Source of the DNA: Kiritimatiellota bacterium
GTDB lineage: Bacteria > Verrucomicrobiota > Lentisphaeria > Victivallales > JAADHT01
Direction: 5' to 3'
NCBI GenBank assembly: GCA_013151705.1
Contig: JAADHT010000218.1
Coordinates: 1 to 36,994 of the forward strand
Length of the DNA: 36,994 nt
Shown here: piece by piece, positions 9,331 to 36,994 of the stretch
Position numbering within the stretch: position 1 is the first letter of the stretch
How the letters are laid out: each line of letters begins with the position of its first letter
Notes under the pieces: model-generated
Seen by the model: only the letters and a program-made list of their open reading frames with translations
The model's database searches: none
Told to the model about the DNA's origin: nothing
Made by a program: the position numbers and the translations under genes

Positions 9331-9353
9331 ATTATTTAAGGATACGCGCGTAA

Positions 9354-10268: not shown

Positions 10269-10310
10269 ACCGTCGACGCTTGAATTTCGACAACCAAACG
10301 GATTCGTCGT

Positions 10311-11828: not shown

Positions 11829-11851
11829 TCAAGTCGTTATGGGATGGCCCC

Positions 11852-12184: not shown

Positions 12185-12185
12185 A

Positions 12186-12521: not shown

Positions 12522-12526
12522 CTTAT

Positions 12527-13288
12527 CTACCTCCACTTGACGGATATGAACACTGGGGATTCATCGGATTTCGCGCGAAGCCCCAAGGCCGCGCCTCTGA
12601 ACGTCAGAGTTTTAATCGCGGCCATATCCAATTCTTGGTCGCCACACGAACACTCCAGGACTACCGTCGGAAAAAAGTCTCCATCGAAAAAACGGGTTTT
12701 CAACACTGTCTCATTCAAAGGCGGAGGTTTTGTTTTCACGAGCGAGCGGACTGCCGAGGAATCGGGAAACAACTGTGGAAGCCGCGAGCCGTCTTCAAGA
12801 AGCCAGAGAGGGTATTCGGAAGTAGGGATGGCGACACGCGGTTCGGTTGGAGAGATTGGCAGCGCGACGTATCTCCATAATTTACGCAACCGTTCCTGTT
12901 CGGTTTCCGTGGGCGATGGTAGGGGAGACGACGCGCTGAAACGAAAGCTTGGTTTACGCGTCCTCTCCACGAAAGGCGTGTCATTCACGCTGTCCTCGCT
13001 CAATCCCAAGCTGAATCCGCAAACTCGGTTCGGCTTGATAAAGCATTTGGGATCCAAAATGCCAAGCCATTTCAGAAGTCCAAGCTCCGTCTTCGACGTG
13101 GGATTCAATGGAAGCAGCGCCACCATCGGAGGCGGCGCGGAGGTCGCCGCCAAAGGGGGTGGCGCTTTTTTGAAGAGAAGAAAGGTTGCATGAAGAGCCA
13201 ACGTTAAAAGGATGGCCATCACCATTCCAAAGGAAAGGCGGGATTCTTTCGATTCCCTGGAATTGAAACTGTCAATCGTTCTTTTCAT
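12527..13288 (-). CDS. TonB-like energy transducer (N-terminal TM anchor, Pro-rich linker, TonB-C-like end)
   Basis: It sits downstream of exbB-exbD and overlaps exbD by 17 nt. It has a TM segment (FGMVMAILLTLALHATFLLF), a Pro-rich stretch (KKAPPPLAATSAPPPMVALLPLNP) and a C-terminal VVLECSCGDQELDMAAIKTL that resembles the TonB SSG..LD.AA motif. Confidence 0.6.
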   Translation of the reverse strand: MKRTIDSFNSRESKESRLSFGMVMAILLTLALHATFLLFKKAPPPLAATSAPPPMVALLPLNPTSKTELGLLKWLGILDPKCFIKPNRVCGFSLGLSEDSVNDTPFVERTRKPSFRFSASSPLPSPTETEQERLRKLWRYVALPISPTEPRVAIPTSEYPLWLLEDGSRLPQLFPDSSAVRSLVKTKPPPLNETVLKTRFFDGDFFPTVVLECSCGDQELDMAAIKTLTFRGAALGLRAKSDESPVFISVKWR

Positions 13289-13724
13289 CCTGAAAGACCT
13301 TTTCCTTGGCGGGGTTGTCTGAGAGCGTGGCGACGTACACGTTGAGCCCAAGCGATCTCGCCAGCGACATCATCCGCACCACGACTCCGTACTCGGTCGT
13401 TCTATCCGCTCTGACTATCACGGTATTGGCGTTCCAATCGGCTTTGCATTTCTGCAACCGCTCCGTAAGAGTCTCCCAATCCATTTCCATGTCGTTGAAA
13501 TAAAGCCTGTTCGAACGGTCGATCGACACCACCAGTTTATCGACGCTCATTTTACTGCTGGCCTTGGCGGTGGGCAATGTGACGGGGATTCCTGAAACCT
13601 GCACGAAAGAACTGCTCAACATAAAAAATATGAGCAGAAGAAACACAGTGTCGATCATAGGCGTCAAATCAGGACGGCCGCTGATTATCTTCAAATTACC
13701 GCGGATTCTACTTTTCATTTCCAC
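13272..13724 (-). CDS. exbD: Biopolymer transport protein ExbD/TolR
   Basis: Motifs are DLTPMIDTVFLLLIFFM and VTLP, with a C-terminal periplasmic domain (VIVRADRTTEYGVVVRMMSLARSLGL). Confidence 0.85.
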   Translation of the reverse strand: MEMKSRIRGNLKIISGRPDLTPMIDTVFLLLIFFMLSSSFVQVSGIPVTLPTAKASSKMSVDKLVVSIDRSNRLYFNDMEMDWETLTERLQKCKADWNANTVIVRADRTTEYGVVVRMMSLARSLGLNVYVATLSDNPAKEKVFQDEKND

Positions 13725-14364
13725 CCTCTTTGGACGCTTGCGTCAGCTTGCCCCAGTTGCGCTTGAAAAAATATATTATTTCGGATGACGCCTTCTCCAT
13801 GTCGAGCGTGATGGAATCTATTCTGGAGACTAGATAGTTGTAGGCGACGAAACATGGAATCGCCACGCAGAGGCCGGCGGCGGTGGTGAAAAGCGCCTGC
13901 CCTATTCCATTGGCCAAATCGCTGGCGTTCACCATCGCCCCTTTCGCTCTGATCGTGAAGAAAATATCTATCATTCCCAAAACAGTGCCGAGCAAACCAA
14001 GCAACGGCGCTATATACGCGATAGTCGCCAAAACCTTCATTCGGATTTCGAGACGCGGAATCTCACCCAGAGCGGCGTCGTCAACGGCCTGTCTCAAATC
14101 CTCTTCCCCCTCCTCGAATGCGAGAATCGCGGCTCTGAGCACGTGAGCCACCGGCCCGGGAGTGTCGTCGCACAGACTGATCGCCTCCACTATGCTGTTT
14201 CTTTTCAAAACGTTTACCAATCCGCGCACCAGATCTCCGACGCTTATCTGGACTCTGTGCAGATAGAACGTCTTCTCCAAAAAAATGAATGTCGCCACGA
14301 CACTGCACAGCAATATCAGCCACATGACCGGTCCACCCTGTTTCATAAACTCCATAAATAACAT
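13708..14364 (-). CDS. exbB: MotA/TolQ/ExbB proton channel protein
   Basis: The protein has three TM segments. The conserved IAYIAPLLGLLGTVLGMI and GIGQALFTTAAGLCVAIPCFVAYN are present. Confidence 0.85.
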   Translation of the reverse strand: MLFMEFMKQGGPVMWLILLCSVVATFIFLEKTFYLHRVQISVGDLVRGLVNVLKRNSIVEAISLCDDTPGPVAHVLRAAILAFEEGEEDLRQAVDDAALGEIPRLEIRMKVLATIAYIAPLLGLLGTVLGMIDIFFTIRAKGAMVNASDLANGIGQALFTTAAGLCVAIPCFVAYNYLVSRIDSITLDMEKASSEIIYFFKRNWGKLTQASKEGGNEK

Positions 14365-14370
14365 TGTTCA

Positions 14371-16956: not shown

Positions 16957-17248
16957 TGGTTCAAACATCCGGTGTTTAAATACGCCACTCTGGACCCACA
17001 GGATTCCGAATCGCATACTACGTACTATTTGATCTGGTTCAACGGAGCGAGGAAAACCACCTGCAAGGGTGTGAACCCCGTCCGGAACGGAGCGCCAGCG
17101 TTCGTTTCCAAAATCCGTTGTCGGAACCCCGTTCGCAAAACGCTGGTAACATACTCCAATTAACGCTTAGAACAAGTCGCTCTTGATCCCTTGCGCCTTC
17201 TTTATCACCTACCACCTACCCCCTGAGAAAAGTCCATTATTGAAAAGA

Positions 17249-17276
17249 TTTAACATTTTTTTAAGAGTTCCTTAAT
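17249..17276 (+). promoter_or_regulatory. Three phased hexamer direct repeats, TTTAAC-N5-TTTAAG-N5-CTTAAT (PmrA-box-like OmpR-family response-regulator site)
   Basis: Half-site starts are at 17249, 17260 and 17271 (11-bp period), 112 nt upstream of the methyltransferase ATG. A near-identical array lies at 22251-22278. Confidence 0.55.
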
Positions 17277-17387
17277 TTCACTCATCTAAAGTATTCGCGA
17301 CTGAGAGGTTTTGGCTTCGGGGTGTGAAAAGTCAGGGGGTTAAATTGTGATCCGGTCGGCAAACAATAAAACGAGGAGAAACTGAAC

Positions 17388-18185
17388 ATGGAAAAGACCG
17401 TGGAACGGGAAATGGGAACCTTGACATTCGCTGAATGGCAAACAGCAATGGACGGCGCTCCGGAAAGAAGCGGAGAGGATGGAGAAACAGAATCAGCTTG
17501 TAACTCATATGTGGATGCGAAATCCCGATTTTCAAAAGTGAAAAAGGCCTTGAGCTACCCGTCCGAATACCGAACGGGAAACGCCCATGACGATCGAGAG
17601 CGCGGAGCCATCCGCCAAGCGCTCGATTATCTGAAACCCTGTTCAAAAGTGCTTGATTTGCCTTGTGGGACCGGCCGTCTAACCAATTTGCTGCTAGAAG
17701 CGGGACATGAAGTCAGGGGAGCGGATGTCTCAAATGGAATGGTGAGACTGGCGAGGAAGAATTTCGAGAAGCGACACAAGCAGGCTGCGGAAAACGCTAC
17801 GGCTCACAACGTTCAATTCAATGTGGTCGATGTGATGGATACTCCTTATCAAAATGGAGAATTCGACGCGGTCGTCTGCAATCGTTTGTTTCACCATTTC
17901 ATTGAAAGCGAAACGCGCGTCGCGGCGTTGACCGAGCTCCGACGCATCACCTCGGAAGCCGTCATAGTGTCGTTTTTCAACTCGAAATCGTTCGATGCCT
18001 GTTGGCGCCGCGTCAGGAATTGGATGAGGATGCGCCGTCCAAAGGATAGGTTGCCGATTTCCTTGAAACAATTCGAATCCGAATTGAATTCCGCCGGATT
18101 GAGGATCGTTGCCCGTATTCCGGCGCGCCCATTCATCTCGCAGCAATTTTATATCGTCGCCAGACCTAGAAGCATTTCACAATAA
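17388..18185 (+). CDS. Class I SAM-dependent methyltransferase
   Basis: Motif I is VLDLPCGTGRLTNLLLEAGHEVRGADVS. Also present are FDAVVCNRLFHH and a gaggag RBS. Confidence 0.85.
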   Translation: MEKTVEREMGTLTFAEWQTAMDGAPERSGEDGETESACNSYVDAKSRFSKVKKALSYPSEYRTGNAHDDRERGAIRQALDYLKPCSKVLDLPCGTGRLTNLLLEAGHEVRGADVSNGMVRLARKNFEKRHKQAAENATAHNVQFNVVDVMDTPYQNGEFDAVVCNRLFHHFIESETRVAALTELRRITSEAVIVSFFNSKSFDACWRRVRNWMRMRRPKDRLPISLKQFESELNSAGLRIVARIPARPFISQQFYIVARPRSISQ

Positions 18186-18234
18186 ACAAGGACGATTGGC
18201 GGGTTCAACGCCATGGTATAGAAGCGAAAAGACG

Positions 18235-18634
18235 CTGTCCATCCATTCAATCAACACCGCGAAACGCAAGATATACTATCGGATTATTATTTTGCCGGCT
18301 TTCGCGTTGGGCACTGGAGCCGGGGATTTGATCTCTGAAAAACTTGAGTTAGGGTATGGAGTCGCATTGTCCATTTTTTCCGCGGGTATTCTAGGAATTT
18401 CAATCTCTTATTACTATTTTAAATTAAACGCGACTTGCGCGTTTTGGATCGCGTTCATTTTCACAAGACCCCTTGGAGCCTCAATTAGGCGATTTAATGA
18501 CTCAATCACCCGCAGACAGCGGATTGGGAATGGCAAGTGTCAATGCCGCTTTCTTTTCAGTGATCATTGGATTAATTATTTGTTTGAGTGTTAACGAGCG
18601 GAGAAAATCTAAAGAAAAATGTCGAGAAATATAA
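18235..18634 (+). pseudogene. Frameshifted C-terminal remnant of a repeat-containing integral membrane protein (COG4705-like)
   Basis: Frame 1 encodes YRIIILPAFALGTGAGDLISEKLELGYGVALSIFSAGILGISISYYYF...FWIAFIFTRPLGAS. The sequence continues in the +1 frame as LGDLMTQSPADSGLGMASVNAAFFSVIIGLIICL, repeating the LG..GDL...LG pattern. The first two thirds of the family architecture are absent. Confidence 0.55.
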
Positions 18635-25658: not shown

Positions 25659-25736
25659 CGGGATGTAGCGCAGTCTGGTTAGCGCGTTTGACTGGGGGTC
25701 AAAAGGTCGGAGGTTCGAATCCTCTCATCCCGACCA
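25659..25736 (+). tRNA. tRNA-Pro (anticodon GGG), CCA end encoded
   Basis: A hand-folded cloverleaf fits. The parts are:
- acceptor cgggatg/catcccg
- D stem gcgc/gcgc
- anticodon stem tttga/tcaaa with loop ct-GGG-gg
- T arm ggagg-ttcgaat-cctct
- discriminator A plus CCA. Confidence 0.93.
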
Positions 25737-26401: not shown

Positions 26402-27538
26402 ATGGAATTCGAGTTCATTTCCCCGGAGAAAATTGTTTTCGGCCCAGGAAAAGTAAATGAGTCTGGCGCATTGTGTGAGGGTTTGGGTCGTCGGGCCTTG
26501 ATTGTGTGCGACGCGTATACGCTCGGCAGCGGATTGGCGGAGCGTGTGGCGGGAATTTTAAAAGCCGCCGGCATGGAGTCGACCATCTACAGCGGAGTCA
26601 TTCCCAACCCCACCGCGGAATGTGTTGACGAAGCTGGCGCGGTGGCGATGGCGAATGATTGTGATTTCGTCGTCGGCGTGGGCGGCGGGTCTTCCATGGA
26701 CACGGCCAAGGGAGCGGCGGTTTCGGCGACTCACGGCGGGAAGATATGGCCTTACGCCATCGGCGACAAAGAGATCACCGACAGTGTTTTGCCCATCGTG
26801 GCGATCACCACAACCTCCGGGACAGGCAGCCAGTGCACTTGTTTCGCGGTTATTTCCAATCACGAGACGAAGCAGAAACCAGGAATGGGGTCGCCGCTCA
26901 TACTTCCCAAGCTCGCGATTGTCGATCCGGAGCTGATGCTGTCGGTTCCCAGACAATTGACCGCCAACACCGGATTTGACGTTTTCACTCACGCCGTGGA
27001 GGCTTACACCTCCACAGCGGCATCCGCAATGAGCGACATGCATGCCGAGAAATCACTAATATTGCTTGGCGGCTTCCTCGAACGTTGCTACAAGGATGGT
27101 TCCGACTTGGAAGCCAGGGAGGCGATCGCGCTGGCCGACACCTGCGCCGGGATGGCTATTTGCAACGCCGTCGTGACTTTGCCTCATGTAATAGCGCATG
27201 TCATCAGCGGGCATTTCGAGGAAATTCCGCATGGCGACGCTCTTCACTCCATATATCGCGCGAGCCTGAAATTCAATTCGCGGGCCTTGCCTGGAAAACA
27301 CCGGTTTATCGCCAATGCCATTGATCCGGGAAACAACGACGTGGTTTCGGCATTTGAAAATTACTTCAGCCGTTTTGAATTTGTGAACATGCTTAAAAAC
27401 AAATTGGCGGAAGACCCAGAGGCGATTGATCGTCTCGCTGAAGACACCTTCACTTATATGTTGGGAATAACGGAACTAAATCCCGTGAAAGCGACACTGG
27501 AAGACGCCAAACGAATTCTGGTTGAGTCAAGCAAATAG
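26402..27538 (+). CDS. Iron-containing (group III) alcohol dehydrogenase
   Basis: Motifs are GVGGGSSMDTAKGAAV and a metal-binding His cluster (LPHVIAHVISGHFEEIPHGDA). A taggagga RBS precedes the start. Confidence 0.9.
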   Translation: MEFEFISPEKIVFGPGKVNESGALCEGLGRRALIVCDAYTLGSGLAERVAGILKAAGMESTIYSGVIPNPTAECVDEAGAVAMANDCDFVVGVGGGSSMDTAKGAAVSATHGGKIWPYAIGDKEITDSVLPIVAITTTSGTGSQCTCFAVISNHETKQKPGMGSPLILPKLAIVDPELMLSVPRQLTANTGFDVFTHAVEAYTSTAASAMSDMHAEKSLILLGGFLERCYKDGSDLEAREAIALADTCAGMAICNAVVTLPHVIAHVISGHFEEIPHGDALHSIYRASLKFNSRALPGKHRFIANAIDPGNNDVVSAFENYFSRFEFVNMLKNKLAEDPEAIDRLAEDTFTYMLGITELNPVKATLEDAKRILVESSK

Positions 27539-27563
27539 TTATTAAAATTTGAGGAGCGACAAC

Positions 27564-28418
27564 ATGCCCCTGGTAAACCCTATGCCTATGTTGGAGAAAG
27601 CGCGCGCGGAAGGTTTCTGCGTCGGCGCGTTCAATGTGGTTGATTACTTGTCAATCGAGGCGGTGGTGGAAGCCGCCGAGCGTAAAAGAGCGCCGGTTAT
27701 AATACAGACTTCATCCGCCACGATCAAACGTTTCGGTATTGAAAACATCGTGACAATGACCCGTATGGCCGCGGCGGAGTCCACCGTGCCGATATGCCTG
27801 CACCTTGATCATGGAACAGATGTCTCGGTAATTAAAGAAGCTATTGAAAAGGGGTATAGCTCGGTTATGATTGACGCCTCGAAACTGGCTTTTGAGGAAA
27901 ATATAGCAGTCAGCAAAGAAGTTGTCGAAGCGGCTCACAAAGCCGGTCTTGCCGTTGAAGGTGAAATCGGGCTGGTCGCGGGAGTGGAGGATGACATCGT
28001 GGTCAATGCCGAGGACGCGATCTATACAACACCGGAGGAAGCGATTGAATTTCAAGCCCGTTCCGGTGTTGATTTTCTGGCGGCGGCCATCGGTACGGCT
28101 CATGGCTTCTACAAAGTAGCGCCAAAACTGAATATCGACACATTGCGCGAAATACGCGTCAAAACTGATTTCCCGCTGGTCGTGCATGGCGGCACGGGGT
28201 TGCCGACGAATATCGTCATGGAATTGGTTGAAGCGGGAGGCGCCAAGTTTAACGTGTCAACGCAAATCAAGCAAACCTATATTGACTCAATGTACGGTTA
28301 TATACAGGAAAAGCGCGACGAATACAACATTTTAAAAGTTCTCGACGCTGCGAAACAGGGATTGGCGGATATGATCGCTGAATATATGACAATCCTTGGC
28401 GGCGAGGGTAAGGCGTGA
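27564..28418 (+). CDS. Class II (metal-dependent, TIM-barrel) fructose/tagatose-bisphosphate aldolase family protein
   Basis: Motifs are GAFNV, PVIIQTS, LHLDHG, VMIDAS, VEGEIG, AIGTAHG and VVHGGTG. A gaggag RBS lies at 27551-27556. Confidence 0.88.
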   Translation: MPLVNPMPMLEKARAEGFCVGAFNVVDYLSIEAVVEAAERKRAPVIIQTSSATIKRFGIENIVTMTRMAAAESTVPICLHLDHGTDVSVIKEAIEKGYSSVMIDASKLAFEENIAVSKEVVEAAHKAGLAVEGEIGLVAGVEDDIVVNAEDAIYTTPEEAIEFQARSGVDFLAAAIGTAHGFYKVAPKLNIDTLREIRVKTDFPLVVHGGTGLPTNIVMELVEAGGAKFNVSTQIKQTYIDSMYGYIQEKRDEYNILKVLDAAKQGLADMIAEYMTILGGEGKA

Positions 28419-28426
28419 GGTGAATC

Positions 28427-29365
28427 ATGAGTGTTTCGTACTGTAAATATCCCTGTGACATGCATTGCCATACTGTTCGTTCAGATGGAAATGACACTCC
28501 ACGGGAATTATTGAGCAACGCCGCCTTGGTGGGTCTGAAGGTGGTGGCGATTACGGATCATGACACCCCGCCGCCTGTCAACTGCGAACTTGAGGACGGC
28601 AGTGAAGTCCCATGCGATGAATATGCTTCGGAGTTGAAAATAGTCTATGTGCCAGGATATGAGTTTTCCTGCGACAGATGGGTTGATGATGTTCACATCT
28701 GCGGTTACGCGATGAACTGGGATTATCCCGCTTTGGCCGATGAAATCCAGATGGCCCGAAACAGCAAAAGCGAGGCCTATAAGAAATTGTGCGGGATGTT
28801 GACATCGAAAGGCATGGAGATTGACTGGGAGCTGGACATTCTGCGAGTTGACACTCCCAATGAGCGTGCTCCGGATGAGGTGGAACGTAAACATATTTTT
28901 GAGGCCATCGCCGTCAAAGGACATACTCCCACCTGGAGCGAGGCTAAAATAATGGTGCGTGACGATCCTGAATTGAATATCCGGCGACGTAAAATCGGCG
29001 CGGCGGCGGCGATTGATCTCATCCATGCATGTGGTGGCGTCGCCGTGCTGGCGCATCCCTATCTGATTGATGAAAAAGTGTTTGTCGACGGTAAAGAGAA
29101 AATATGCCGAACGGAATACATTGAACGACTGATAACCGCGGGTCTTGACGGCATTGAGGCATCGTATACTTATGATAAAACATCATATAAAGGAACTCTG
29201 TCTCCTGAAGAAATAGAACAGGTGATACGCGGGAAATATACTGATCGTCTGTTTATCAGCGGCGGTTCCGACTATCACGCTGGACACAAAAAAGGAAACG
29301 CGAAGGTGCGTCATCTCGGCGAACGCGGTATTTCAATGGATGAGTTCGCGAAGTTCGACTTGTGA
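28427..29365 (+). CDS. PHP-domain metal-dependent phosphoesterase
   Basis: Motifs are CDMHCHTVRSDG, VVAITDHDT, VLAHP and GGSDYHA. Confidence 0.85.
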   Translation: MSVSYCKYPCDMHCHTVRSDGNDTPRELLSNAALVGLKVVAITDHDTPPPVNCELEDGSEVPCDEYASELKIVYVPGYEFSCDRWVDDVHICGYAMNWDYPALADEIQMARNSKSEAYKKLCGMLTSKGMEIDWELDILRVDTPNERAPDEVERKHIFEAIAVKGHTPTWSEAKIMVRDDPELNIRRRKIGAAAAIDLIHACGGVAVLAHPYLIDEKVFVDGKEKICRTEYIERLITAGLDGIEASYTYDKTSYKGTLSPEEIEQVIRGKYTDRLFISGGSDYHAGHKKGNAKVRHLGERGISMDEFAKFDL

Positions 29366-29391
29366 GAATGGAAATAAAAAGGAGAAGTGAA

Positions 29392-30102
29392 ATGATTGAC
29401 ATGAAAACTCTGACTAAAAAAGAGCTTGCGGGAATGATGGATTATTCCATTCTGCCTAAAAATACTCAGGAGAAGGACATTCGTGAAGGTTGCGCCGTCG
29501 CGCGTGAATATCGTTTTGCCGCTTTTTACAGTAGCAGTCCATACTGGACTCCGTTAATCAAAGAGGAACTACAGGGGTGTGATGATATTGAGATCGGCAC
29601 CGGCATCGCGTTCCCATTCGGTTCGACACCCGCTTCCGTCAAAGCGCTTGAGGTGGAAGAGTCCGTCAAGCGCGGATGCACCACTGTTGACATGGTCATG
29701 AATATAGGAGCTCTCAAAGACAAACGATATAAAGTAGTAGAGGAAGAGCTTGAACTGTTCGTCAAAGCGGCCGGAAACGCGGTGACGAAATGCATACTCG
29801 AGGTCTGTTATCTGACTAATGAGGAAATTACAGCCGGCAGTAAACTGATTGAAGCGGCGGGAATTCAGTACGCCAAGACTTCCACCGGTCAATTTGACGG
29901 TCCGGATATGGATCAGTTTCTGATAATGCGTGATACTTTAGCTGGAAGCGCCGTGAAACTTAAAGCGGCCGGCGTCAAATTCCCGCGTCCGCAAAATGCT
30001 TTGGTATTCATTAAGGCGGGAGCCGTGAGAATCGGCACGCGCGCGGCGATAGAGATTGTCGAAGCTTATGACACCATGAAATCAATCGGCCTCATCGGCT
30101 GA
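29392..30102 (+). CDS. DeoC/LacD-family class I aldolase (deoxyribose-phosphate aldolase-like)
   Basis: Motifs are MMDYSILP, VDMVMNIG, TKCILEVCYL and the Schiff-base lysine motif YAKTSTGQ. An aaaaaggaga RBS precedes the ATG at 29392. Confidence 0.85.
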   Translation: MIDMKTLTKKELAGMMDYSILPKNTQEKDIREGCAVAREYRFAAFYSSSPYWTPLIKEELQGCDDIEIGTGIAFPFGSTPASVKALEVEESVKRGCTTVDMVMNIGALKDKRYKVVEEELELFVKAAGNAVTKCILEVCYLTNEEITAGSKLIEAAGIQYAKTSTGQFDGPDMDQFLIMRDTLAGSAVKLKAAGVKFPRPQNALVFIKAGAVRIGTRAAIEIVEAYDTMKSIGLIG

Positions 30103-30118
30103 TCAAAGGAAGCCGCTC

Positions 30119-31681
30119 ATGCCTATTCGACGGCAATATCTGGCTGGAGTCGATGTCGGAACAACTGGAACCAGATGTTCCATCTACGACCTGAAGGGAC
30201 AACGTGTCGGCAGTGAATATCTGGAGTATCCCTCAATCTATCCGCATCCCGGCTGGGTGGAACAGGATATTCAGTTCATGGTCAAGCGTTGCATGGAGGC
30301 TTGCCGCGCGGCAATCTCCTCCGCCGGGGTCGCTCCTGAAAATATTGCGTCAATCGGCTTCTCCACCCAACGTTCGGTGACTTGTCCGGTGGATGCGGAC
30401 GGTGAACCGGTGCGTGACATGATATCGTGGCAGGATGCCAGAACCGGAGACGAAGTGGCTGACATGCGTCGGCTGATTGACGATGAGGAGTACTATGCTT
30501 TAAGCGGTTTGCCGATGGGAACAACCTGGATTCTCTCCAAAATATTATGGATGCGGAAAAACGAGCCGGAATTTTTTGAAAAAACCGCGAAAGTCGTCCA
30601 GAACCAGGACATCGTACTGCGGGCATTTGGCGCCGAAGGCTTTTTCACTGATATGAGTTGCATGCCGTTTTATGGTGTTTGGGATGTTAAAAATGGCTGC
30701 TGGAATGATAAGTTGATGTCATTATTCGATTTGACGCCGGAGTTTTTCGGCACACCGACTCCGCCGGGAACTCAGGTCGGGGTTATTGGCGCTGATATCG
30801 CCGCCAAAACCGGTTTTGCGGAAGGAACTCCGATTTGTGTTGGCGCGGGTGATCAGAATTGCAGCGTTGTCGGCATGGGGGCGGTCAAGCCGGGGATGGC
30901 CACGGTCACTCTCGGCACGGCCGGTCTGGCGATTCTCACAGTTGACAGTCCGGTTCCTGGATTCGGGGGTATGATGATCACTCATCACGCGGTGCCGAAT
31001 CAGTGGGAGGTCGAAGGATTGTCGAACGCGGCCGCCAGTTCATTGCGCTGGTTTCGTGACGTGATTGGAACCCGGGAGAAGGAGATTGCTGAAAAAAGCG
31101 GCGCGGACGCGTATGCGCTACTCGACCAGTTAGCGGCAAAAAGCAAACCCGGCAGTCATGGAATTCTATATATGCCTTATTTGGCGACCGCCGGAACACC
31201 GCGCTGGAACGCGAACGCTCGGTCAGCATTCATCGGCATGTCATTGGCGCATAATCGGGCCGATATGACGCGGGCGGTAATGGAGGGAGTGGTTCTTGAA
31301 ATTCGTGATATGATCGAAGGTTGGCGCGAACAGGGAATGGAAGCCGAAGTGTTGAGACTTGGCGGCGGAGCGGCGAAATCGAAGTTATGGAACCAGATTC
31401 AAGCTGATGTCTACGGCAGACCGGTTCAGATTCCGCGTGAAAGTGATTCCACTGTTCTCGGCGCCGCTATTCTGGGCGGTGTGGGCGCCGGTATTTTTTC
31501 TTCCATTGATGAGGGCGTGAAGAACATGGTCCATGTGGCCGGAGAGCTTGAACCAGATATGGCTAATCATCATATTTACGAGGAGATGTACCGCGCGTAT
31601 CGCGCGGCGTATAATGGTCTCGCGGAAAGCGGGACTTATGATCTGCTTGCCGGACTTCAGGAAAAATTCGCTCAAGGATAA
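30119..31681 (+). CDS. FGGY-family carbohydrate kinase (xylulokinase/fuculokinase/rhamnulokinase-like)
   Basis: The N-terminal motif is YLAGVDVGTTGTRCSIYD. Also present are VGAGDQNCSVVGMG and the C-terminal LRLGGGAAKSKLWNQIQADVYGRPV. Confidence 0.9.
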   Translation: MPIRRQYLAGVDVGTTGTRCSIYDLKGQRVGSEYLEYPSIYPHPGWVEQDIQFMVKRCMEACRAAISSAGVAPENIASIGFSTQRSVTCPVDADGEPVRDMISWQDARTGDEVADMRRLIDDEEYYALSGLPMGTTWILSKILWMRKNEPEFFEKTAKVVQNQDIVLRAFGAEGFFTDMSCMPFYGVWDVKNGCWNDKLMSLFDLTPEFFGTPTPPGTQVGVIGADIAAKTGFAEGTPICVGAGDQNCSVVGMGAVKPGMATVTLGTAGLAILTVDSPVPGFGGMMITHHAVPNQWEVEGLSNAAASSLRWFRDVIGTREKEIAEKSGADAYALLDQLAAKSKPGSHGILYMPYLATAGTPRWNANARSAFIGMSLAHNRADMTRAVMEGVVLEIRDMIEGWREQGMEAEVLRLGGGAAKSKLWNQIQADVYGRPVQIPRESDSTVLGAAILGGVGAGIFSSIDEGVKNMVHVAGELEPDMANHHIYEEMYRAYRAAYNGLAESGTYDLLAGLQEKFAQG

Positions 31682-31695
31682 AATAATAGTTGCTA

Positions 31696-31801
31696 GAGCC
31701 AATTGCAAAAGTCTGAGCGAGCCGTGTTGCGAGCGCATGAGGTGCTGATTTCGCTCTACGAGCTATGGAGGACAAGCTGTTCAGACTTTTGCAACTGGCT
31801 C
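31696..31801. repeat. Complete 106-bp inverted-repeat (MITE- or REP-like) element bounded by copies C and D of the 21-bp motif
   Basis: gagccaattgcaaaagtctga (31696-31716) and tcagacttttgcaactggctc (31781-31801) are inverted repeats with 1 mismatch. They enclose 64 bp with further self-complementarity. The element lies between the kinase stop and iclR. Confidence 0.7.
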
Positions 31802-31939
31802 GACGATTAAAAAGTTTTCTTCCCGGGCCAATTTCCAATTTCGGATATCCAACAATCAGCCGCGGCGGAAACCGAAGATAGTGAAGAGAAAATGCAAGTG
31901 GCTCATTTGAATTTGGAGTTCACACACACTGTGTACGAC

Positions 31940-32752
31940 ATGAGTATGAACAAGAGCAAAAAAAGCAATTATTCGGCGCCGGCGGTGGATGCGATGTTGG
32001 ACATCGTCGAACGGATGGCCCAAGAGAGTCGGGTGTTTAATTTAACCGAGTTGGCGGTCGGTTTGGATCTCTCGAACAATCTGGTTTTCCGCGTGTTGAA
32101 TCGTTTGTTGGAACGTGGTTACGTCGAGCGCTTGGAGTCAGGCGGCTACCGTTTGTCCGACGGTTTTTTCACGTTGGGCATGAAGTTGTATTCACGTTTC
32201 GAATTGCGCGTGGCGGCTAGAAAACACCTTGAGAAATTGAGCGCGGAGGTGGGCGAGACGGCTCAGTTGCAGGTTCTAAGCGGTAGGGAAATGCTGGTTT
32301 TGGAGGCTGTGGCGCCTTCGTCGGACTTTTACCTGCACGTCACGCCGGGAATTCGGGTGCTCGCTCACTGCAACGCCTACGGCAAGGTGGTGATGGCGTT
32401 CCTGCCTCCCGAGAGAGTCGATGAGATTCTGGAGGGAAGGCTTGAGCGCGTTACCAAAAGAACGATAACCTGCAAGAAAACTTTGATGAATGAGCTGAAA
32501 CGGATAAAAAAGACTGGCGTGGCGTACGATAACGAGGAGTACAGCAGAGGGGTGTTCTGCGTGGGATCGCCCGTTTTCGATAGCGATGGAAAGATTGTCG
32601 GTGGAGTTGGTCTGACGGGACTCACATCAAGATTCAATCCCGAAAACGCGCCGGAATTGGAGAAAAAGGTGCTTGAATGCGCGGAGCGCGTTTCCAGCGG
32701 ACTAGGATACGGCGGCGATTTTTTCACTACACTCGCCACTTCCGCGAAATGA
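31940..32752 (+). CDS. IclR-family transcriptional regulator
   Basis: The N-terminal wHTH is LDIVERMAQESRVFNLTELAVGLDLSNNLVFRVLNRLLERGYVER. The effector domain carries AQLQVLSGREMLVLEAV, TKRTIT, GVAYDNEEYSRGVFCVGSPVFD and GGVGLTG. Confidence 0.9.
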   Translation: MSMNKSKKSNYSAPAVDAMLDIVERMAQESRVFNLTELAVGLDLSNNLVFRVLNRLLERGYVERLESGGYRLSDGFFTLGMKLYSRFELRVAARKHLEKLSAEVGETAQLQVLSGREMLVLEAVAPSSDFYLHVTPGIRVLAHCNAYGKVVMAFLPPERVDEILEGRLERVTKRTITCKKTLMNELKRIKKTGVAYDNEEYSRGVFCVGSPVFDSDGKIVGGVGLTGLTSRFNPENAPELEKKVLECAERVSSGLGYGGDFFTTLATSAK

Positions 32753-32797
32753 ATTGTTTGTATGGAAATTCGTCGACGGCTCCTAAATCCAAGTGTC

Positions 32798-32811
32798 GAA
32801 ATTCGAATTTC
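32798..32811. promoter_or_regulatory. Perfect 14-bp palindrome GAAATTCGAATTTC, a candidate operator upstream of the first glycyl radical enzyme gene
   Basis: Direct reading shows it is its own reverse complement. It lies 49 nt upstream of the 32860 ATG. The related half-site TCGAATTTC lies at 25851-25859 and TTTCGAAA at about 26327-26334. Confidence 0.3.
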
Positions 32812-32830
32812 AGACTTTTGCTATTGGCTC
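32810..32830 (-). repeat. Copy E of the dispersed 21-bp motif (2 mismatches)
   Basis: tcagacttttgctattggctc lies between iclR and GRE-1. Confidence 0.6.
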
Positions 32831-32859
32831 TTTAGATCAGGCATTCCGTGGAATGCGGT

Positions 32860-34971
32860 ATGGAGAAAAAAATGAACGCTGACGAAAGAGCAAAATTAGT
32901 ACGGACCCGAGTGCTTGACGACCAGTCGAAATTATCGTGGTTCAAAGGACGCGATGTAGTTACGGACGCTGAGATATTACGCGGACTGCGGAACTACAAG
33001 TCGCAACAATTGCGAGCGGGCGCCCTCACTCGCGGAAGATTATCGGGACTGCGCTTTCAGATCGACGATTTCGAATTGCTCGCGGGAAGGATTTTGGAGA
33101 ATGATCGTTCCAACGAGGAGAAAGAGGAAGCCGTGGCATTTCTTGAGACACTTCCCCCGGCCGGCGGTCAATCGGGACATTGCGCTCTCTACTGGGAGGA
33201 GCTTTTCGAGATTGGTTTGGGTGGGTTGATCGACAAGGTATCCGCATTGGGAAAAAATTCCGAGGGTGAGCGAGTGGACGCCTATCACTCGTTCATCGAC
33301 GCGTTGGAGGGCGTGCGGACGATGATAGCCAACGCATGCGAACCTGTCGAGGAGGCATTGCCCTCGGCCACTCCGGAACGAACAGTCGAGTTGGAGAAAA
33401 TTCTTGACTCGTGCCGTCGGATCGAGAAAAAACCTCCGCGGAATTTCCGCGATGCGATTCAGTTGGTGTGGTTCATGATAATAGGCACGATGATAGGAGA
33501 TGGCGTGGGTTTCATTTGCCCCGGGATGCTTGACAGGCATTTCGCCCGCTTCATCGAAGATGGCGAGGCGTTTGAAAACGAGGTTTTGGAAATTCTCGAG
33601 GCCTACTATTTTCTGATCAATGATTTCACTCCCGCGGGAGGTGCTTACGCCATTATGGTGGGAGGTGTCGATGAAAATGGAAGAAACCTCACCAATAAGT
33701 TGTCGTTTCTCTGTTTGGAGGCTTTGCGTCGAACCAATCTCGTCTATCCAACCGTTGGCGTCTGCTGGCACGAGGAAACTCCCGACGCTCTAACGGATCT
33801 GGCTATCGATTTGATTTCAAAAGGGTATTCCACTCCGGCTTTCTTCGGTGACTCGACGATAAGAAAAGGGTTGGTGAAATACGGAACGCCTGAAAAAGAG
33901 GCTTGCGACTACCAGAACTCCACTTGCGTCGAGATTACGCCATACGGCTCAAGCAATGTCTGGGTGGCATCCCCCTATTTCAGCCTCTGCGGCATATTGA
34001 TGGATGTCATGGGGACGATGGTCGATGGTGGTTACATTATCAAAACGTATGACGACTTCGTGTCCGCGTACTTCGCGAAACTGGCGGATGAGATCGCGAA
34101 AGCCGCGGAACTCCAAAACCAGTGGCGCGAGAAACGCAGGTTGAACAACAGGAACCCGCTCCAGAGCGTGATGACCCGCGATTGCGTGGAGCGAGGACGC
34201 GATATCGACGACGGAGGCGCGCGGTACAACTGGGTGGAATGCTCATTCGTCGGGCTGGCGAATTTGGTGGATTCCCTGAAAGTGGTGAAAGAGGAGGTAT
34301 TTGAATCACGCAATTTCTCACTGAATGAATTGAAAAGCCTGTTGGACGCGAATTTCGCGGAGAATGAAAACATTAGAATGAGGTTTCTCAACGCGCATTC
34401 GAAATATGGGCTGGACGATTCCGAGGTCGACGACGAGGTGAGTAGGTTTGTGGCGTTCGTAACCGCCGAGTGCGCGAAACACAAGATGCTGCCGGACGAT
34501 TCGCATTTCATTCCCGGAACGTTCTGCTGGGTGAAGCATCAAGTTCTCGGAGCTCAATGCGGGGCCACGCCAGACGGCCGCCAAGCCACACGCCCGTTCG
34601 CCGATGGAGCCGGTCCAGCGCAAGGCCGCGAGAAACTCGGCCCCACGGCGGCGATAAACTCCGTGACATCCTGGGATCATTCCCCGCTGATCGGCGGTTC
34701 CGCCTTCAATATGAAATTCGACAGCTCGGTCTTCAACTCGCCGGAATCGAATGAAAAGCTCAAACAGCTCATTCTCGTGTTTCTGCGTCAAGGCGGATTC
34801 GAAACTCAAATCAATGTATTGAAACACGGAATTCTTAAAGAAGCGAAGGCGAACCCGGAGGAATACCGCGATCTGGTCGTCAGAATCGGAGGATATACGG
34901 ATTATTTCACTAAACTATCTCCTGACATGCAGGACGAGGTGATGCTGAGAACGGAATACACCGAGTTGTAG
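32860..34971 (+). CDS. Glycyl radical enzyme, PFL-like fold, compact (about 700 aa), with a Cys-x-Glu thiyl loop
   Basis: The glycyl loop is DLVVRIGGYTDYFTKLSPDMQDEVMLRTEY and the thiyl loop is DYQNSTCVEITPYG. Also present are FRDAIQLVWF, ATPDGR and GPTAAINS. The alternative start at 32872 has a better GGAG RBS. Confidence 0.9.
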   Translation: MEKKMNADERAKLVRTRVLDDQSKLSWFKGRDVVTDAEILRGLRNYKSQQLRAGALTRGRLSGLRFQIDDFELLAGRILENDRSNEEKEEAVAFLETLPPAGGQSGHCALYWEELFEIGLGGLIDKVSALGKNSEGERVDAYHSFIDALEGVRTMIANACEPVEEALPSATPERTVELEKILDSCRRIEKKPPRNFRDAIQLVWFMIIGTMIGDGVGFICPGMLDRHFARFIEDGEAFENEVLEILEAYYFLINDFTPAGGAYAIMVGGVDENGRNLTNKLSFLCLEALRRTNLVYPTVGVCWHEETPDALTDLAIDLISKGYSTPAFFGDSTIRKGLVKYGTPEKEACDYQNSTCVEITPYGSSNVWVASPYFSLCGILMDVMGTMVDGGYIIKTYDDFVSAYFAKLADEIAKAAELQNQWREKRRLNNRNPLQSVMTRDCVERGRDIDDGGARYNWVECSFVGLANLVDSLKVVKEEVFESRNFSLNELKSLLDANFAENENIRMRFLNAHSKYGLDDSEVDDEVSRFVAFVTAECAKHKMLPDDSHFIPGTFCWVKHQVLGAQCGATPDGRQATRPFADGAGPAQGREKLGPTAAINSVTSWDHSPLIGGSAFNMKFDSSVFNSPESNEKLKQLILVFLRQGGFETQINVLKHGILKEAKANPEEYRDLVVRIGGYTDYFTKLSPDMQDEVMLRTEYTEL

Positions 34972-34994
34972 GAAACGAAACAGTGAAAAAGGAA

Positions 34995-35197
34995 AAGATT
35001 TAACCACTAACTCTCACTAACTTAACACCCGCCTTCGCATCTACGGCGTGGCAGGCTAACAATGTATTGCGCTCCGTACCGGAGCGCAGCGGTGTGTCAT
35101 AAAAATTCAACGTGACGTTTCCGCGTTCGGTATTCCGAACGCGGAAATATTCTCTTCGTTAGTGTGAGGTTAGTGTTCGTTAGTGGTTTAAAATCTT
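34995..35197. repeat. 203-bp structured inverted-repeat element with phased CACTAAC/GTTAGTG heptamers and two internal hairpins
   Basis: The left arm is aagatttaaccactaactctcactaac (34995-35021). The right arm is gttagtgtgaggttagtgttcgttagtggtttaaaatctt (35158-35197). Heptamers sit at 35005 and 35015 on the + strand and at 35158, 35169 and 35179 in inverse orientation. Confidence 0.65.
35118..35147 (+). terminator. Perfect 13-bp stem / 4-nt loop hairpin, a candidate intrinsic terminator or attenuator between the two GRE genes
   Basis: tttccgcgttcgg-tatt-ccgaacgcggaaa is followed by tattctcttcgtt. A second 9-bp hairpin, tgcgctccg-tac-cggagcgca, lies at 35068-35088. Confidence 0.45.
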
Positions 35198-35222
35198 GAT
35201 TGATTTGATATTGAGGAAAAAT

Positions 35223-36994
35223 ATGAGAACACCAACTTATGAGATATTGATGGAGCTCGGCGAATATTTTCTCGCGGGATTCCATGAAAACAGGTTCGAC
35301 TCCTATATGAGGCGATTCTGCAAAGCGTTGCTTCTATATGCGAAACACGCCGATGCGGTTGATTACGATGAAACCGCGCTGTTCCCCTCCGGCGGAGCCC
35401 AAATCTGGCGTTTGATTCCCGACTCCAGTGCCGGATTCTCGTATTCATACACGTTTTTCTATGATAGTCCGAAATTTTTGAGAAAAATAGAGACGCTTCA
35501 GGATGAGAGGAAAAAGATATTGATGCGCGGAGTGGATGGCGAGATGACGACAATCGCCTCCATTCACATCGCGCCTCAATACCGTTGCGGCGGAGCCGGA
35601 TACACACATTCCATAATCAACTACGCCCGAGTTCTGAATGACGGACTGGCTGGCTACAGGAGAAGACTCGAGAAAAAACTCGACGATCCGGATGCAAACG
35701 AAGAAAAGGCGGATTTCCACGCATCGCTCCTGCTGGCTCTCGACGCGGTTTCAATTTTGCGCGACAAACATCTAGCGAAACTCAAAAGCGTCAAAAAAAC
35801 TAGTCGAAAACTGAAAAGGTTGATCGTCGCGATGGAAAAGGTTCCCGAGAATCCGGTCGAATCGTTTTACGAAGCGATGGTCGCCACGAATTTCATGTGG
35901 TTTGTGGACGACGGCGACTCAATCGGCCGCTTGGATCAATTTCTGTATCCGTACTACGAGAAAGATTTGGACGCCGGCGTTATTTCCAGAGACGAGGCTG
36001 GGGAATTGTTGAAGGAGTTTTGGCGCTCATTTGATTGCCGGAGCGGATGGCACATGATTTTGGGGGGAAGCCGCGCGGACGGATCAGCCGCGTACCAAGA
36101 TCTTACCCTCCTTTGTCTCGAGACCATCAAGAAATGCCGTCGCCCCAATACGGGGTTGAGAGTAAGGAAGGACATGCCGGAGGAAATTTGGCGGGCGGCG
36201 CTCGACTCGATGGCATCGGGTTGCGGGCATCCTTCGCTATACAACGAGGAGATGTACTCGGAGGGAATAAGGAATATTCTTAAAGTCGACGAAAAAGACG
36301 CGAGCGACTTCGCCTACGGAGGATGCACTGAGATAATGTTTCAGGGCATGTCGAATGTGGGCTCCATCGATTCTGGGCTGAATCTGCTCGAGGTGCTTGA
36401 GAACGAGTTGCCGAGACTGACTGAATTCGACACCTACGACGAATTCCGCGACCATTTCATGAAAAAGGTCGCGAAAGTCGCGGAACTCACAGTCTCACAG
36501 TCGAATTTGAATCAAAAACAGATGGCGTTGTATCGTCCCCAGCCCATAAGGTCTCTTTTCGTTGAGGATTGCATCGAACGCGGCGTGGACTACAACGCCG
36601 GTGGAGCGAGATACAACGGCAGCGTGATAAACGTGATTGGTTTCGCCAACACCATAAATTCGCTATTCACTATCAAAAAGATTTTCGAGGGAGGAATTCC
36701 AATTTCACGTCAAAGTCTTCTCGATGCGGTCAAAGCCGATTTCACCGGTTTCGAAAAAGAGCTTCAGATAATAAAAAACCTTGACAAGCATGGATGCGAC
36801 AACCCGGAAATCAATGATATCGCGTCGAATCTCTCGAATTTCGTGTTCGACGAGATTCTTTCGAGAAGATGCAGCCGCGGCGACGGATTCTGCGTGCCGG
36901 GAACGATAATGTTCGTAACCTACGCCGCCGAGGGAGCTGATATCGGAGCCACTCCCGACGGTCGCCTGGCCTTCTCGCCGATCGCCGACTCGTA
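35223..36994 (+). CDS. Second glycyl radical enzyme (PFL-like), 3'-partial, running off the window edge
   Basis: This open frame is absent from the ORF track because no stop is reached. The ATG at 35223 follows a gagga RBS. Motifs are SIGRLDQFLYPYYEKDL, the thiyl loop DFAYGGCTEIMFQG, GGARYNGS and GATPDGR. The glycyl loop is expected about 300 nt beyond the window. Confidence 0.9.
   Translation, partial: MRTPTYEILMELGEYFLAGFHENRFDSYMRRFCKALLLYAKHADAVDYDETALFPSGGAQIWRLIPDSSAGFSYSYTFFYDSPKFLRKIETLQDERKKILMRGVDGEMTTIASIHIAPQYRCGGAGYTHSIINYARVLNDGLAGYRRRLEKKLDDPDANEEKADFHASLLLALDAVSILRDKHLAKLKSVKKTSRKLKRLIVAMEKVPENPVESFYEAMVATNFMWFVDDGDSIGRLDQFLYPYYEKDLDAGVISRDEAGELLKEFWRSFDCRSGWHMILGGSRADGSAAYQDLTLLCLETIKKCRRPNTGLRVRKDMPEEIWRAALDSMASGCGHPSLYNEEMYSEGIRNILKVDEKDASDFAYGGCTEIMFQGMSNVGSIDSGLNLLEVLENELPRLTEFDTYDEFRDHFMKKVAKVAELTVSQSNLNQKQMALYRPQPIRSLFVEDCIERGVDYNAGGARYNGSVINVIGFANTINSLFTIKKIFEGGIPISRQSLLDAVKADFTGFEKELQIIKNLDKHGCDNPEINDIASNLSNFVFDEILSRRCSRGDGFCVPGTIMFVTYAAEGADIGATPDGRLAFSPIADS

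Follow-up and report, generated by a model that had tools for sequence, protein, structure and literature searches.

A Kiritimatiellota contig carrying the 5′ part of a probable catabolic operon that joins short glycyl radical enzymes to a sugar-phosphate aldolase cassette

Introduction

The motif Cys-x-Glu on the Cys loop defines the 1,2-eliminase/isomerase class of the glycyl radical enzymes (GREs) (PMC13450708). In Escherichia coli, the GREs YbiW and PflD cleave 1,5-anhydroglucitol-6-phosphate and 1,5-anhydromannitol-6-phosphate (Ma et al., 2024, as summarized in PMC13450708). Further systems close to the locus described here are the B12-independent glycerol dehydratase (GD) of Clostridium butyricum, the 1,2-propanediol (PD) dehydratase of fucose and rhamnose loci with a GRE-associated microcompartment (GRM), and deoxyribose catabolism (deoK-deoC). 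The bottleneck in the discovery of GRE functions is seen in finding clades whose genomic context hints at the substrate (PMC13450708). Here, such a context is described for the contig JAADHT010000218.1 of a Kiritimatiellota metagenome-assembled genome (MAG). The analyzed stretch, in the following called the window, is the complete contig of 36,994 bp. It contains eight co-directional plus-strand genes, adh-fba-php-deoC-FGGY-iclR-GRE1-GRE2, downstream of a tRNA-Pro(GGG) gene, and its 3′ end falls inside GRE2. The window very probably holds the first two-thirds, counted from the 5′ end, of a catabolic operon that is conserved in anaerobic bacteria of the Planctomycetes-Verrucomicrobia-Chlamydiae (PVC) group (Kiritimatiellota, Lentisphaerota), and in which an array of short GREs is combined with one activase, an IclR regulator, an Fe-dependent alcohol dehydrogenase (Fe-ADH) and a four-gene cassette located between adh and iclR.

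Results

Organization of the gene cluster

Gene families were assigned with Pfam and NCBIfam, comparing each score with the cut-off of the model, and the start codons of fba, deoC and GRE1 were chosen by the support of a ribosome binding site (RBS). The following genes were identified:

26402-27538, plus strand, adh, Fe-dependent alcohol dehydrogenase of 378 aa (PF00465, 176 bits; PF25137), first gene of the putative operon
27564-28418, plus strand, fba, class II ketose-bisphosphate aldolase (PF01116, 302 bits); the open reading frame (ORF) opens at 27549, the RBS supports the ATG at 27564
28427-29365, plus strand, php, PHP-family metal-dependent phosphoesterase of 312 aa (PF02811, 27.5 bits)
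29392-30102, plus strand, deoC, deoxyribose-phosphate aldolase of the DERA/DeoC type (TIGR00126); the ORF opens at 29362, the RBS supports the ATG at 29392
30119-31681, plus strand, FGGY-family sugar/polyol kinase of 520 aa (FGGY_N and FGGY_C)
31892-32752, plus strand, iclR, IclR-family regulator (HTH_IclR and IclR_C)
32872-34971, plus strand, GRE1, type B short glycyl radical enzyme of 699 aa (PFL-like and Gly_radical); the ORF opens at 32848
35223-36994, plus strand, GRE2, type A short glycyl radical enzyme, 590 codons (PFL-like), cut by the contig end

With the RBS-supported starts, the first five genes are separated by 25, 8, 26 and 16 nt and each is preceded by a GGAG-like RBS. This agrees with the original prediction, which had been made from the letters of the sequence and had described five packed plus-strand genes with gaps of 8-26 nt; the gene order given there, from the Fe-ADH over the class II aldolase, the PHP enzyme, the DeoC-type aldolase, the FGGY kinase and the IclR regulator to two GREs, is supported by the Pfam and NCBIfam assignments. 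Wider spacers, all of them with repeat elements, follow FGGY (210 nt), iclR (about 119 nt) and GRE1 (251 nt).

The statement that this gene combination corresponds to no canonical route also stands with respect to curated pathways. The equivalog cut-offs in NCBIfam were not reached by ADH, FBA, PHP, FGGY, IclR, GRE1 or GRE2. The scan of the larger window ORFs gave no isomerase, transporter or acylating aldehyde dehydrogenase, as predicted, and no TAL_FSA or PTS gene. A radical-SAM activase is likewise missing among these ORFs of the contig, which ends inside GRE2. Shell proteins, whose absence had been predicted as well, were searched by tblastn with manually entered PduA and EutN queries, and neither the window nor the 171 related loci (2.28 Mb; loci of this set are given as L numbers) gave a bacterial microcompartment homolog. 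Upstream, the larger ORFs scanned between 1 and 25 kb are of housekeeping type, encoding IspD, a poly(A) polymerase-family protein, DapF, a DHDPS-family protein, ExbB, a two-component system and glycosyltransferases.

Conservation of the operon

Conserved synteny, which the original prediction had proposed as a check, was found. The order adh-fba-php-deoC-FGGY-iclR-GREs, together with one radical-SAM activase, occurs in five other contigs (L001, L002, L087, L170 and L171), with L001 and L002 originating from two Victivallales MAGs. The cassette proteins of the five contigs share 68-88% identity with their window counterparts. In three of the five the gaps are near zero; they do not exceed 53 nt across ten genes in L170, and 73 nt in L087, where several stop and start codons overlap. 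In the relatives, the combined form is one operon.

A third GRE type (C) is present in four of the five syntenic contigs, and the trio of types A, B and C with one activase was identified in L001, L002, L087, L170, L167 and L169. The latter two show the B-then-A order of the window, followed by type C and then by the activase. By analogy, the sequence past position 36994 is expected to complete GRE2 (about 120 aa) and to encode a type C GRE of about 654 aa as well as an activase of about 304 aa.

The two parts of the operon also occur separately. A unit [FeADH]-IclR-A-B-(C)-activase recurs in at least eight further loci of Lentisphaerota, and cassettes without GREs were found in L083, L084 and L086. 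IclR orthologs immediately precede GRE arrays in at least ten loci; in the cassette-only locus L083, iclR is the last gene. Orthologs of ADH and IclR occur in three arrangements, namely adh-iclR-GREs (L169, L010, L028), cassette-adh-iclR (L083) and adh-cassette-iclR-GREs (the window group). Their identities to the ADH and IclR of the window are 74% and 55% in L169, 60% and 52% in L083, and 67-73% and 48-59% in the combined loci, the frameshifted adh of L171 being left out. Overall, ADH orthologs of 55-74% identity adjoin IclR in GRE-only, cassette-only and combined loci. In the trees of PHP and FGGY, the cassettes adjoining a type B GRE fall into two separate clades, the window group and L082/L111. 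A merely adjacent position of the two blocks is contradicted by the operon packing of the relatives and by the common ADH-IclR pair. The blocks are separable modules which are mostly found apart.

The neighborhood of type B GREs within 10 kb was surveyed in the 80 best genome matches. The widespread neighbor is the activase alone (39-47 of the 80 loci), followed at a distance by URO-D-like proteins (13), IclR (11), Fe-ADH (7) and cassette genes (3-5). Two or more PFL-fold genes are present in 21 of 71 loci.

Two of the related loci show peculiarities. In L171, adh (7976-9124) and FGGY (11601-13149) are each split into two ORFs in an otherwise syntenic contig, which could be due to sequencing frameshifts or to early pseudogenisation. 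In L082, which holds a cassette and a type B GRE, the gene after the GRE (7310-9367) encodes a 685-aa radical-SAM protein with a Radical_SAM_N domain and not a GRE-type activase.

The glycyl radical enzymes

Both GREs carry the Cys-x-Glu loop that the original prediction had recognized, as NSTCVE in GRE1 and GGCTE in GRE2. In GRE1 (PF01228, 78.7 bits), the Cys loop is located at 33925-33933, the histidine at 33178-33180 and the glycine motif RIGGY at 34882-34896. GRE2 (PF02901, 277 bits) has its Cys loop at 36324-36332 and the histidine in the motif YTHS at 35601-35612, and its glycine domain lies past the window end; the full-length orthologs (708-731 aa, 64-78% identity) carry PF01228, with the glycine motif RIGGYSEYF in L167 and L169. 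By clustering, the GREs of these loci were grouped into type A with the GGCTE loop (GRE2), type B with the NSTCVEITP loop (GRE1) and type C with the GCYEA loop, the last having about 654 aa and a weak YjjI-like Pfam match. Accessory types beyond these three are present in loci of the relatives as well. The Cys-x-Glu motif is C-V-E in GRE1 and C-T-E in GRE2; C-Y-E and C-T-E are found in types C and D of the relatives. GREs of types A, B and C are short (650-730 aa), and the paralog types in L001 and L002 have a mutual identity of 25-34%.

Compared with solved GRE structures, the sequence scores reach at most 258 bits for GRE1 and 149 bits for GRE2. The AlphaFold2 model of GRE1 (pLDDT 88.5, pTM 0.90) has a TM-score of about 0.90 to GD (1r8w), PflD, PD dehydratase and CutC, at 21-26% identity in the structure-based alignment, and a Foldseek search with it gave TM-scores of 0.84-0.92 to the 50 best-matching GRE chains. 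As modeled, GRE1 has a true GRE barrel and is about equally distant from the known eliminases and isomerases. The NCBIfam scores of GRE1 stay far below the cut-offs of CutC (246 of 1050 bits), HypD (276 of 1100) and HpsG/HpfG (234-237 of 1000), and the PflD equivalog PRK09983 (cut-off 1109) gave 290 bits for GRE1 and 176 bits for GRE2. Judged by sequence, GRE1, GRE2 and the type C enzyme are deeply divergent and stand outside every characterized GRE clade, which answers the comparison with characterized members that the original prediction had proposed. A review of June 2026 names no characterized member of these families and emphasizes that whole GRE clades are still unassigned (PMC13450708).

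The active sites were compared by a profile sequence alignment to GD, CutC, PD dehydratase and PflD. Equivalents of GD His164, Cys433 and Glu435 are retained in all paralog types (A, B, C and D); the His164 equivalent is also found in PflD and is a threonine in CutC. In GD, we take His164, His281/Ser282, Asp447 and Tyr640 to line the substrate pocket, and all of these except His164 are presumably those which hold the small glycerol molecule. The GRE1 family keeps only His164 of this list and replaces His281/Ser282 by Gly/Leu-or-Phe, Asp447 by Ala and Tyr640 by Phe. These replacements are therefore compatible with a larger substrate, and the conserved histidine would favor hydroxyl or ether leaving groups over amine or sulfonate. 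The assumption that Cys-x-Glu GREs act on small unphosphorylated substrates, made in the original prediction, is outdated, since YbiW and PflD cleave sugar-alcohol phosphates (PMC13450708).

The activase of the relatives is a Radical_SAM protein of about 304 aa with extra ferredoxin-like (Fer4) domains, and the copy in L001 has the motif CxxxCxxC. It is located in or after the GRE block in L001, L002, L087, L170, L171, L167 and L169. The type B family ranges over the PVC phyla, Hydrogenedentota, Latescibacterota, Chloroflexota and others.

The largest array was found in L009 (327-18888; uncultured Victivallaceae, CAZWRV010000103.1), which carries seven PFL-fold genes on one strand together with an Fe-ADH, IclR and one activase. 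A simple motif search detected the canonical glycine motif in four of the seven; the remaining three GREs may be degenerate or may carry the radical on another residue. In L001 and L002, a 347-aa protein with a signal-peptide/lipoprotein-like N-terminus and no Pfam match is encoded between the A/D-type and the B-type genes (8916-9959 in both).

The only cultured organism among the 80 best genome matches is Oligosphaera ethanolica DSM 24202, which carries a lone type B GRE with 47% identity (L075, 9965-12088). Neither an activase-like CxxxCxxC protein nor a cassette was found within 10 kb of it. This strain could be an experimental handle on the type B family.

In 13 of the 80 loci, mainly outside the PVC group (L021, L025, L029, L031, L032, L040, L043, L045, L047, L049, L059, L060 and L067), URO-D-family proteins (PF01208) are encoded no more than 10 kb from the type B GRE. 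The URO-D family includes corrinoid-dependent methyltransferases, and a link to methylated substrates is one possibility.

The cassette enzymes and the alcohol dehydrogenase

The closest PDB structures of the ADH are generic Fe-ADHs and DhaT. The FBA protein passed TIGR00167 as sole model (264.7 bits, cut-off 215.6), and the Fba, GatY and KbaY equivalogs remained below their cut-offs. Of the 38 assessable metagenome loci, 25 (about two-thirds) have an FBA gene no more than 2.5 kb upstream of php.

The PHP protein shows weak matches to the models of pAp phosphatase and RNase AM. It contains the metal-ligand motifs HCHT, GYEFS, DVHIC, LAHPY and GSDYHA, in which the His, Asp and Glu residues do not vary across the family alignment.

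DeoC exceeds the cut-off of TIGR00126 (152 over 117 bits) and matches the DERA structure 3ngj with 147 bits; the Pfam match is weak. The motifs VDMV, KTSTG and LKAAG align with 3ngj and presumably comprise, in the numbering of E. coli DERA, the catalytic Asp102, the Schiff-base Lys167 and the second lysine Lys201, respectively. By family assignment, DeoC is classed as a bona fide DERA-type enzyme.

For the FGGY kinase, the nearest NCBIfam models are XylB (309 bits, cut-off 380) and LsrK (252 bits, cut-off 528), and LsrK (5ya0) is also the best PDB match. From its family assignments, the cassette as a whole would handle deoxy-sugar phosphates.

Some relatives of the cassette with a PHP identity of about 48% add a transketolase, a transaldolase-like protein, an HAD phosphatase and four tandem DeoC. 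The extended cassettes fit with a module for several deoxy-sugar phosphates feeding the pentose-phosphate network. In L138, L139 and L142 (about 5949-18507), a split transketolase, the transaldolase-like protein, FBA, PHP, the HAD phosphatase, four tandem DeoC, FGGY, a GldA-like Fe-ADH and GntR are encoded. L158 and L159 carry the extended cassette without the transketolase, and a second FGGY replaces the GldA-like ADH. In these five loci, no GRE was found within 10 kb. We know of no description of a sugar-phosphate cluster with such a DeoC multiplicity.

Repeat elements and the tRNA gene

The spacers around iclR and between the GRE genes contain the following elements:

31696-31716, minus strand, exact copy of the 21-nt motif TCAGACTTTTGCWAYTGGCTC
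31781-31801, plus strand, exact copy of the same motif
32810-32830, plus strand, exact copy of the same motif
34999-35191, plus strand, structured element in the GRE1-GRE2 spacer (34972-35222) with 30-nt inverted arms and internal hairpins

In total, the window has five exact copies of the 21-nt motif where 0 are expected, and those at 239-259 (minus strand) and 9310-9330 (plus strand) lie outside the cluster. The plus-strand copies are located 17-91 nt 5′ of annotated start codons, and no copy was found in any of the 171 related loci. A role as cluster-specific operator in the adh promoter and in the upstream regions of iclR and GRE1 was considered and rejected, and the motif is no evidence of co-regulation, because it also occurs outside the cluster and is missing from the relatives. 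Possible roles are those of a genome-specific promoter or regulator motif or of a REP-like motif.

The RNA of the GRE1-GRE2 spacer has a minimum free energy of -95 kcal/mol (z = -6.4). The arms of its structured element contain three CACTAAC and three GTTAGTG heptamers, and a terminator-like hairpin is located at 35117-35148. At the orthologous junction in L169 (7625-7864) the same architecture was found, with the heptamer changed to CACTAAT in all six copies; L167 carries different repeat elements at the corresponding GRE junction. Possible interpretations are a MITE/REP-like element, an array of protein-binding sites or an RNA element for attenuation or processing. In an Rfam scan of 25-37 kb, the tRNA was the sole match:

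25659-25736, tRNA-Pro(GGG), 665 nt upstream of adh

Of the suggested tRNA-Pro-adjacent island, the adjacency itself is correct, but the island framing failed, because the GC content does not shift (0.513 in the cluster, 0.507 upstream), no integrase was found among the larger window ORFs scanned, the tRNA 3′ end has no second copy in the window (the far border lies outside it), and a tRNA-Pro is near the operon in none of nine related loci. The position next to the tRNA gene seems to be incidental.

Discussion

Proposed pathway

As a tentative reading, which we lean to without counting on it, the operon would serve a radical dehydration of sugar alcohols or their phosphates to 2-deoxy-aldose phosphates, which are cleaved by DeoC, with ethanol as a sink and with FBA and the PHP enzyme absorbing the second product. 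Each GRE would be a C-O-cleaving eliminase of the glycerol-dehydratase kind. The thiyl radical would take a hydrogen from a hydroxyl-bearing carbon, the glutamate of Cys-x-Glu would deprotonate the hydroxyl on that carbon, and the conserved histidine would protonate the adjacent hydroxyl, which leaves as water. In this way, the terminal 1,2-diol of sugar alcohols or their phosphates would be converted to 2-deoxy-aldoses, and the GRE paralogs may cover different chain lengths or stereoisomers. The FGGY kinase would add the terminal phosphate before or after the radical step. DeoC would then split the 2-deoxy-aldose phosphate into acetaldehyde and an aldose phosphate (glyceraldehyde-3-phosphate or erythrose-4-phosphate), and the Fe-ADH would reduce the acetaldehyde to ethanol as electron sink. 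The class II aldolase may condense the aldose phosphate with dihydroxyacetone phosphate (DHAP) to a ketose bisphosphate, from which the PHP enzyme would strip the 1-phosphate, giving fructose-6-phosphate or sedoheptulose-7-phosphate. IclR would regulate the whole set. Inferred here are the substrate class, the sequence in which kinase and GRE act, and the parts played by FBA and PHP.

This pathway uses every gene. It is close to the second of two hypotheses in the original prediction, in which a GRE dehydrates a polyol or sugar diol to the later substrate of DeoC, and this logic covers more genes than the first, a deoxyhexose route. A precedent for GRE chemistry on a sugar phosphate with a downstream aldolase and alcohol dehydrogenase is given by YbiW/PflD, FsaA/B and GldA (PMC13450708).

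Several observations weigh against the dehydration of sugar alcohols. Cassette loci were analyzed in a set of 84, of which 80 came from a metagenome scan, and a GRE was found within 10 kb in only two of them; conversely, about 75 of the 80 genome loci of type B GREs have no cassette within 10 kb. Because most loci of either module lack the other nearby, the link between cassette and GREs could be lineage-specific or indirect. The GRE-only loci L169, L010 and L028 hold just ADH and IclR beside the array, and GREs can therefore do without a kinase or aldolases nearby. No polyol transporter or polyol-specific gene was seen in these loci. The flanks of the relatives encode sulfatases, a GH29 fucosidase, an SSF transporter, a SASA esterase and GH116, which point to sulfated or fucosylated glycans and not to free polyols. 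DERA is stereoselective at C3, and one DeoC may therefore reject products of three GREs. Finally, no PHP-family fructose or sedoheptulose bisphosphatase turned up in the literature searched.

Alternative explanations

In the best surviving alternative, the two modules converge on a shared product: an independent deoxyribose/nucleoside sugar-phosphate cassette and independent GRE lyases for 2-hydroxyethyl or 1,2-diol compounds would have an aldehyde, the Fe-ADH and IclR in common. Such a convergence would account for modules that lie apart in most sampled genomes and for the ADH-IclR pair accompanying either of them. It also agrees with a DeoC of canonical DERA type, with the nearness of the PHP protein to nucleotide phosphatases and with L129, in which ADH-FBA-PHP is flanked by a Bmp/PnrA-type binding protein and an amidohydrolase; Bmp/PnrA proteins bind nucleosides. 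However, the cassettes showed no nucleoside phosphorylase, phosphopentomutase or DeoK-type kinase, type B GREs are linked to two cassette clades, ten genes form one packed operon in L170 and L087, and the conserved histidine speaks for hydroxyl or ether leaving groups and against amine or sulfonate. This explanation is considered unlikely.

The deoxyhexose route mentioned above would start from glycan-derived fucose or rhamnose, which is converted to the ketose, phosphorylated at C1 by FGGY and split by the class II aldolase into DHAP and lactaldehyde; the Fe-ADH would form 1,2-propanediol, which a GRE dehydrates to propionaldehyde. The combination of FGGY, aldolase and Fe-ADH parallels FucK/FucA/FucO, but the scores remain far below the cut-offs for FucK (131 of 471 bits), RhaB (40 of 528) and FucO/lactaldehyde reductase (203 of 523), and neither a fucose/rhamnose isomerase nor an aldolase of the FucA/RhaD type (PF00596) was seen in the window or the syntenic operons. 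The best fold matches include PD dehydratase structures; however, no shell protein was found in the window or the 171 loci, and no acylating aldehyde dehydrogenase is annotated in the window or the syntenic operons. A glycan context is visible in L087, where the operon is preceded by an SSF transporter, two sulfatases and a GH29 alpha-L-fucosidase, in L170 with sulfatases upstream, and in L027, where the type B GRE and its activase adjoin an MR/MLE enzyme, an epimerase-family protein and a DHDPS-like aldolase, read as fuconate-type. The adjacency of sulfatases is weak evidence, because they are very numerous in these genomes, and Kiritimatiellales strain F1 ferments fucose without forming 1,2-propanediol (PMC6388578). 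As DeoC, PHP and at least three GRE types are left unexplained besides, we regard this route as rather improbable.

A similarly low and slightly smaller chance is given to an ether opening like that of YbiW/PflD, in which the GREs cleave 3,6-anhydrogalactose, anhydro-alditols or O-methyl sugars, perhaps phosphorylated, to deoxy-keto sugars for the kinase, the aldolases and ADH. The products would be deoxy-ketoses, which are no DERA substrates, and an aldolase of the FSA type is missing in the window. PflD is the second-best sequence and fold match of GRE1, and shares His, Cys and Glu with these GREs, but the 290 bits of GRE1 are far from the PflD cut-off of 1109. In E. coli, both a GRE-aldolase-ADH chain on sugar phosphates and two paralogs for two epimeric substrates are described (PMC13450708), and the latter would explain the arrays. 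The hosts degrade marine polysaccharides (PMC6388578), yet no agarase or carrageenase genes were seen beside the operons.

A chance adjacency of unrelated blocks on an acquired island behind the tRNA gene, to which the wide, repeat-holding spacers of the window and the tRNA-Pro 665 nt upstream might point, is extremely improbable and effectively excluded by the synteny data, as five further contigs show the gene order, three of them with near-zero gaps, all arrangements use orthologous ADH and IclR proteins, and a GC shift, an integrase, a tRNA 3′ repeat in the window and a conserved tRNA neighbor are all missing.

Significance

Extended beyond this operon, the radical dehydration of sugar alcohols would amount to a "deoxy-glycolysis" of PVC anaerobes, in which arrays of 3-7 hitherto unrecognized GRE dehydratases would act on sugar alcohols, Fe-ADH-reduced sugars or their phosphates to form 2-deoxy-aldose phosphates, DERA would cleave the latter into acetaldehyde and a triose or tetrose phosphate, and a class II aldolase with a new PHP-type ketose bisphosphatase would lead the remainder back to central metabolism. 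This wider proposal is possible but doubtful. If true, it would provide a redox-sparing fermentative route for polyols and reduced sugars, at least three new GRE functions, and a catabolic DERA role outside nucleoside breakdown.

The operon brings together three uncharacterized GRE families, and its partner enzymes narrow the chemistry to hydroxylated, phosphorylatable and aldol-cleavable substrates. In the literature searched, no description of the operon or of its GRE families was found. The families are common among Kiritimatiellota, Lentisphaerota, Planctomycetota, Latescibacterota, Hydrogenedentota and Anaerolineae, uncultured anaerobic polysaccharide degraders, and the substrate of these GREs probably matters for carbon turnover in sediments and digesters. 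The arrays furthermore pose the question of how one activase can serve several GREs of 25-33% mutual identity. The fba-php-deoC-FGGY cassette is itself widespread, with more than 2,300 homologs of the PHP protein, and no description of it was found in the literature searched either.

Comparison with known systems

The anhydroglycolysis of E. coli (YbiW/PflD, FsaA/FsaB, GldA) resembles the proposed pathway of the operon in using a Cys-x-Glu GRE on a substrate derived from sugar, an aldolase that splits the deoxy product, an alcohol dehydrogenase that reduces the small carbonyl, and paralogous GREs for stereoisomeric substrates (PMC13450708). His, Cys and Glu are common to PflD and the GREs described here, and the GRE1 model reaches a TM-score of 0.90 to PflD. 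The identity is only about 23-26%, and the GREs of the operon are 50-150 residues shorter. Unlike anhydroglycolysis, which relies on FSA and on phosphorylation by the PTS, the operon has a DERA-type and a class II FBA aldolase and an FGGY kinase which would phosphorylate the substrate, as well as 3-7 GRE genes per activase and a PHP phosphatase.

GD of Clostridium butyricum is the best sequence and fold match of GRE1, with the equivalents of His164, Cys433 and Glu435 kept. Both systems combine a GRE with an activase containing ferredoxin-like domains and with an Fe-ADH (DhaT), and both have no microcompartment shell. They differ in the low identity (24%), in the replacement of His281/Ser282, Asp447 and Tyr640, and in the shorter N-terminal region of GRE1, as well as in the several divergent paralogs and their linkage to a kinase, two aldolases and a phosphatase.

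With the PD dehydratase of fucose and rhamnose GRM loci, the operon has in common the Cys-x-Glu eliminase fold, the Fe-ADH and a possible link to fucose glycans (L087). The identity is 23-25%, and in contrast to the GRM loci, no shell proteins, acylating aldehyde dehydrogenase or FucI/FucA-type genes were seen.

Deoxyribose catabolism shares the DERA-family DeoC and the logic of kinase, DERA and acetaldehyde reduction. The kinase belongs to the FGGY family here and not to the ribokinase family as DeoK, no nucleoside phosphorylase or phosphopentomutase was seen, and in the cassette DeoC is always paired with a class II aldolase and a PHP phosphatase. Compared with all of these systems, the locus is non-canonical, conserved and uncharacterized; it falls among the GRE eliminase loci and is set apart by the multi-paralog arrays, the short GREs and the DERA-centered cassette.

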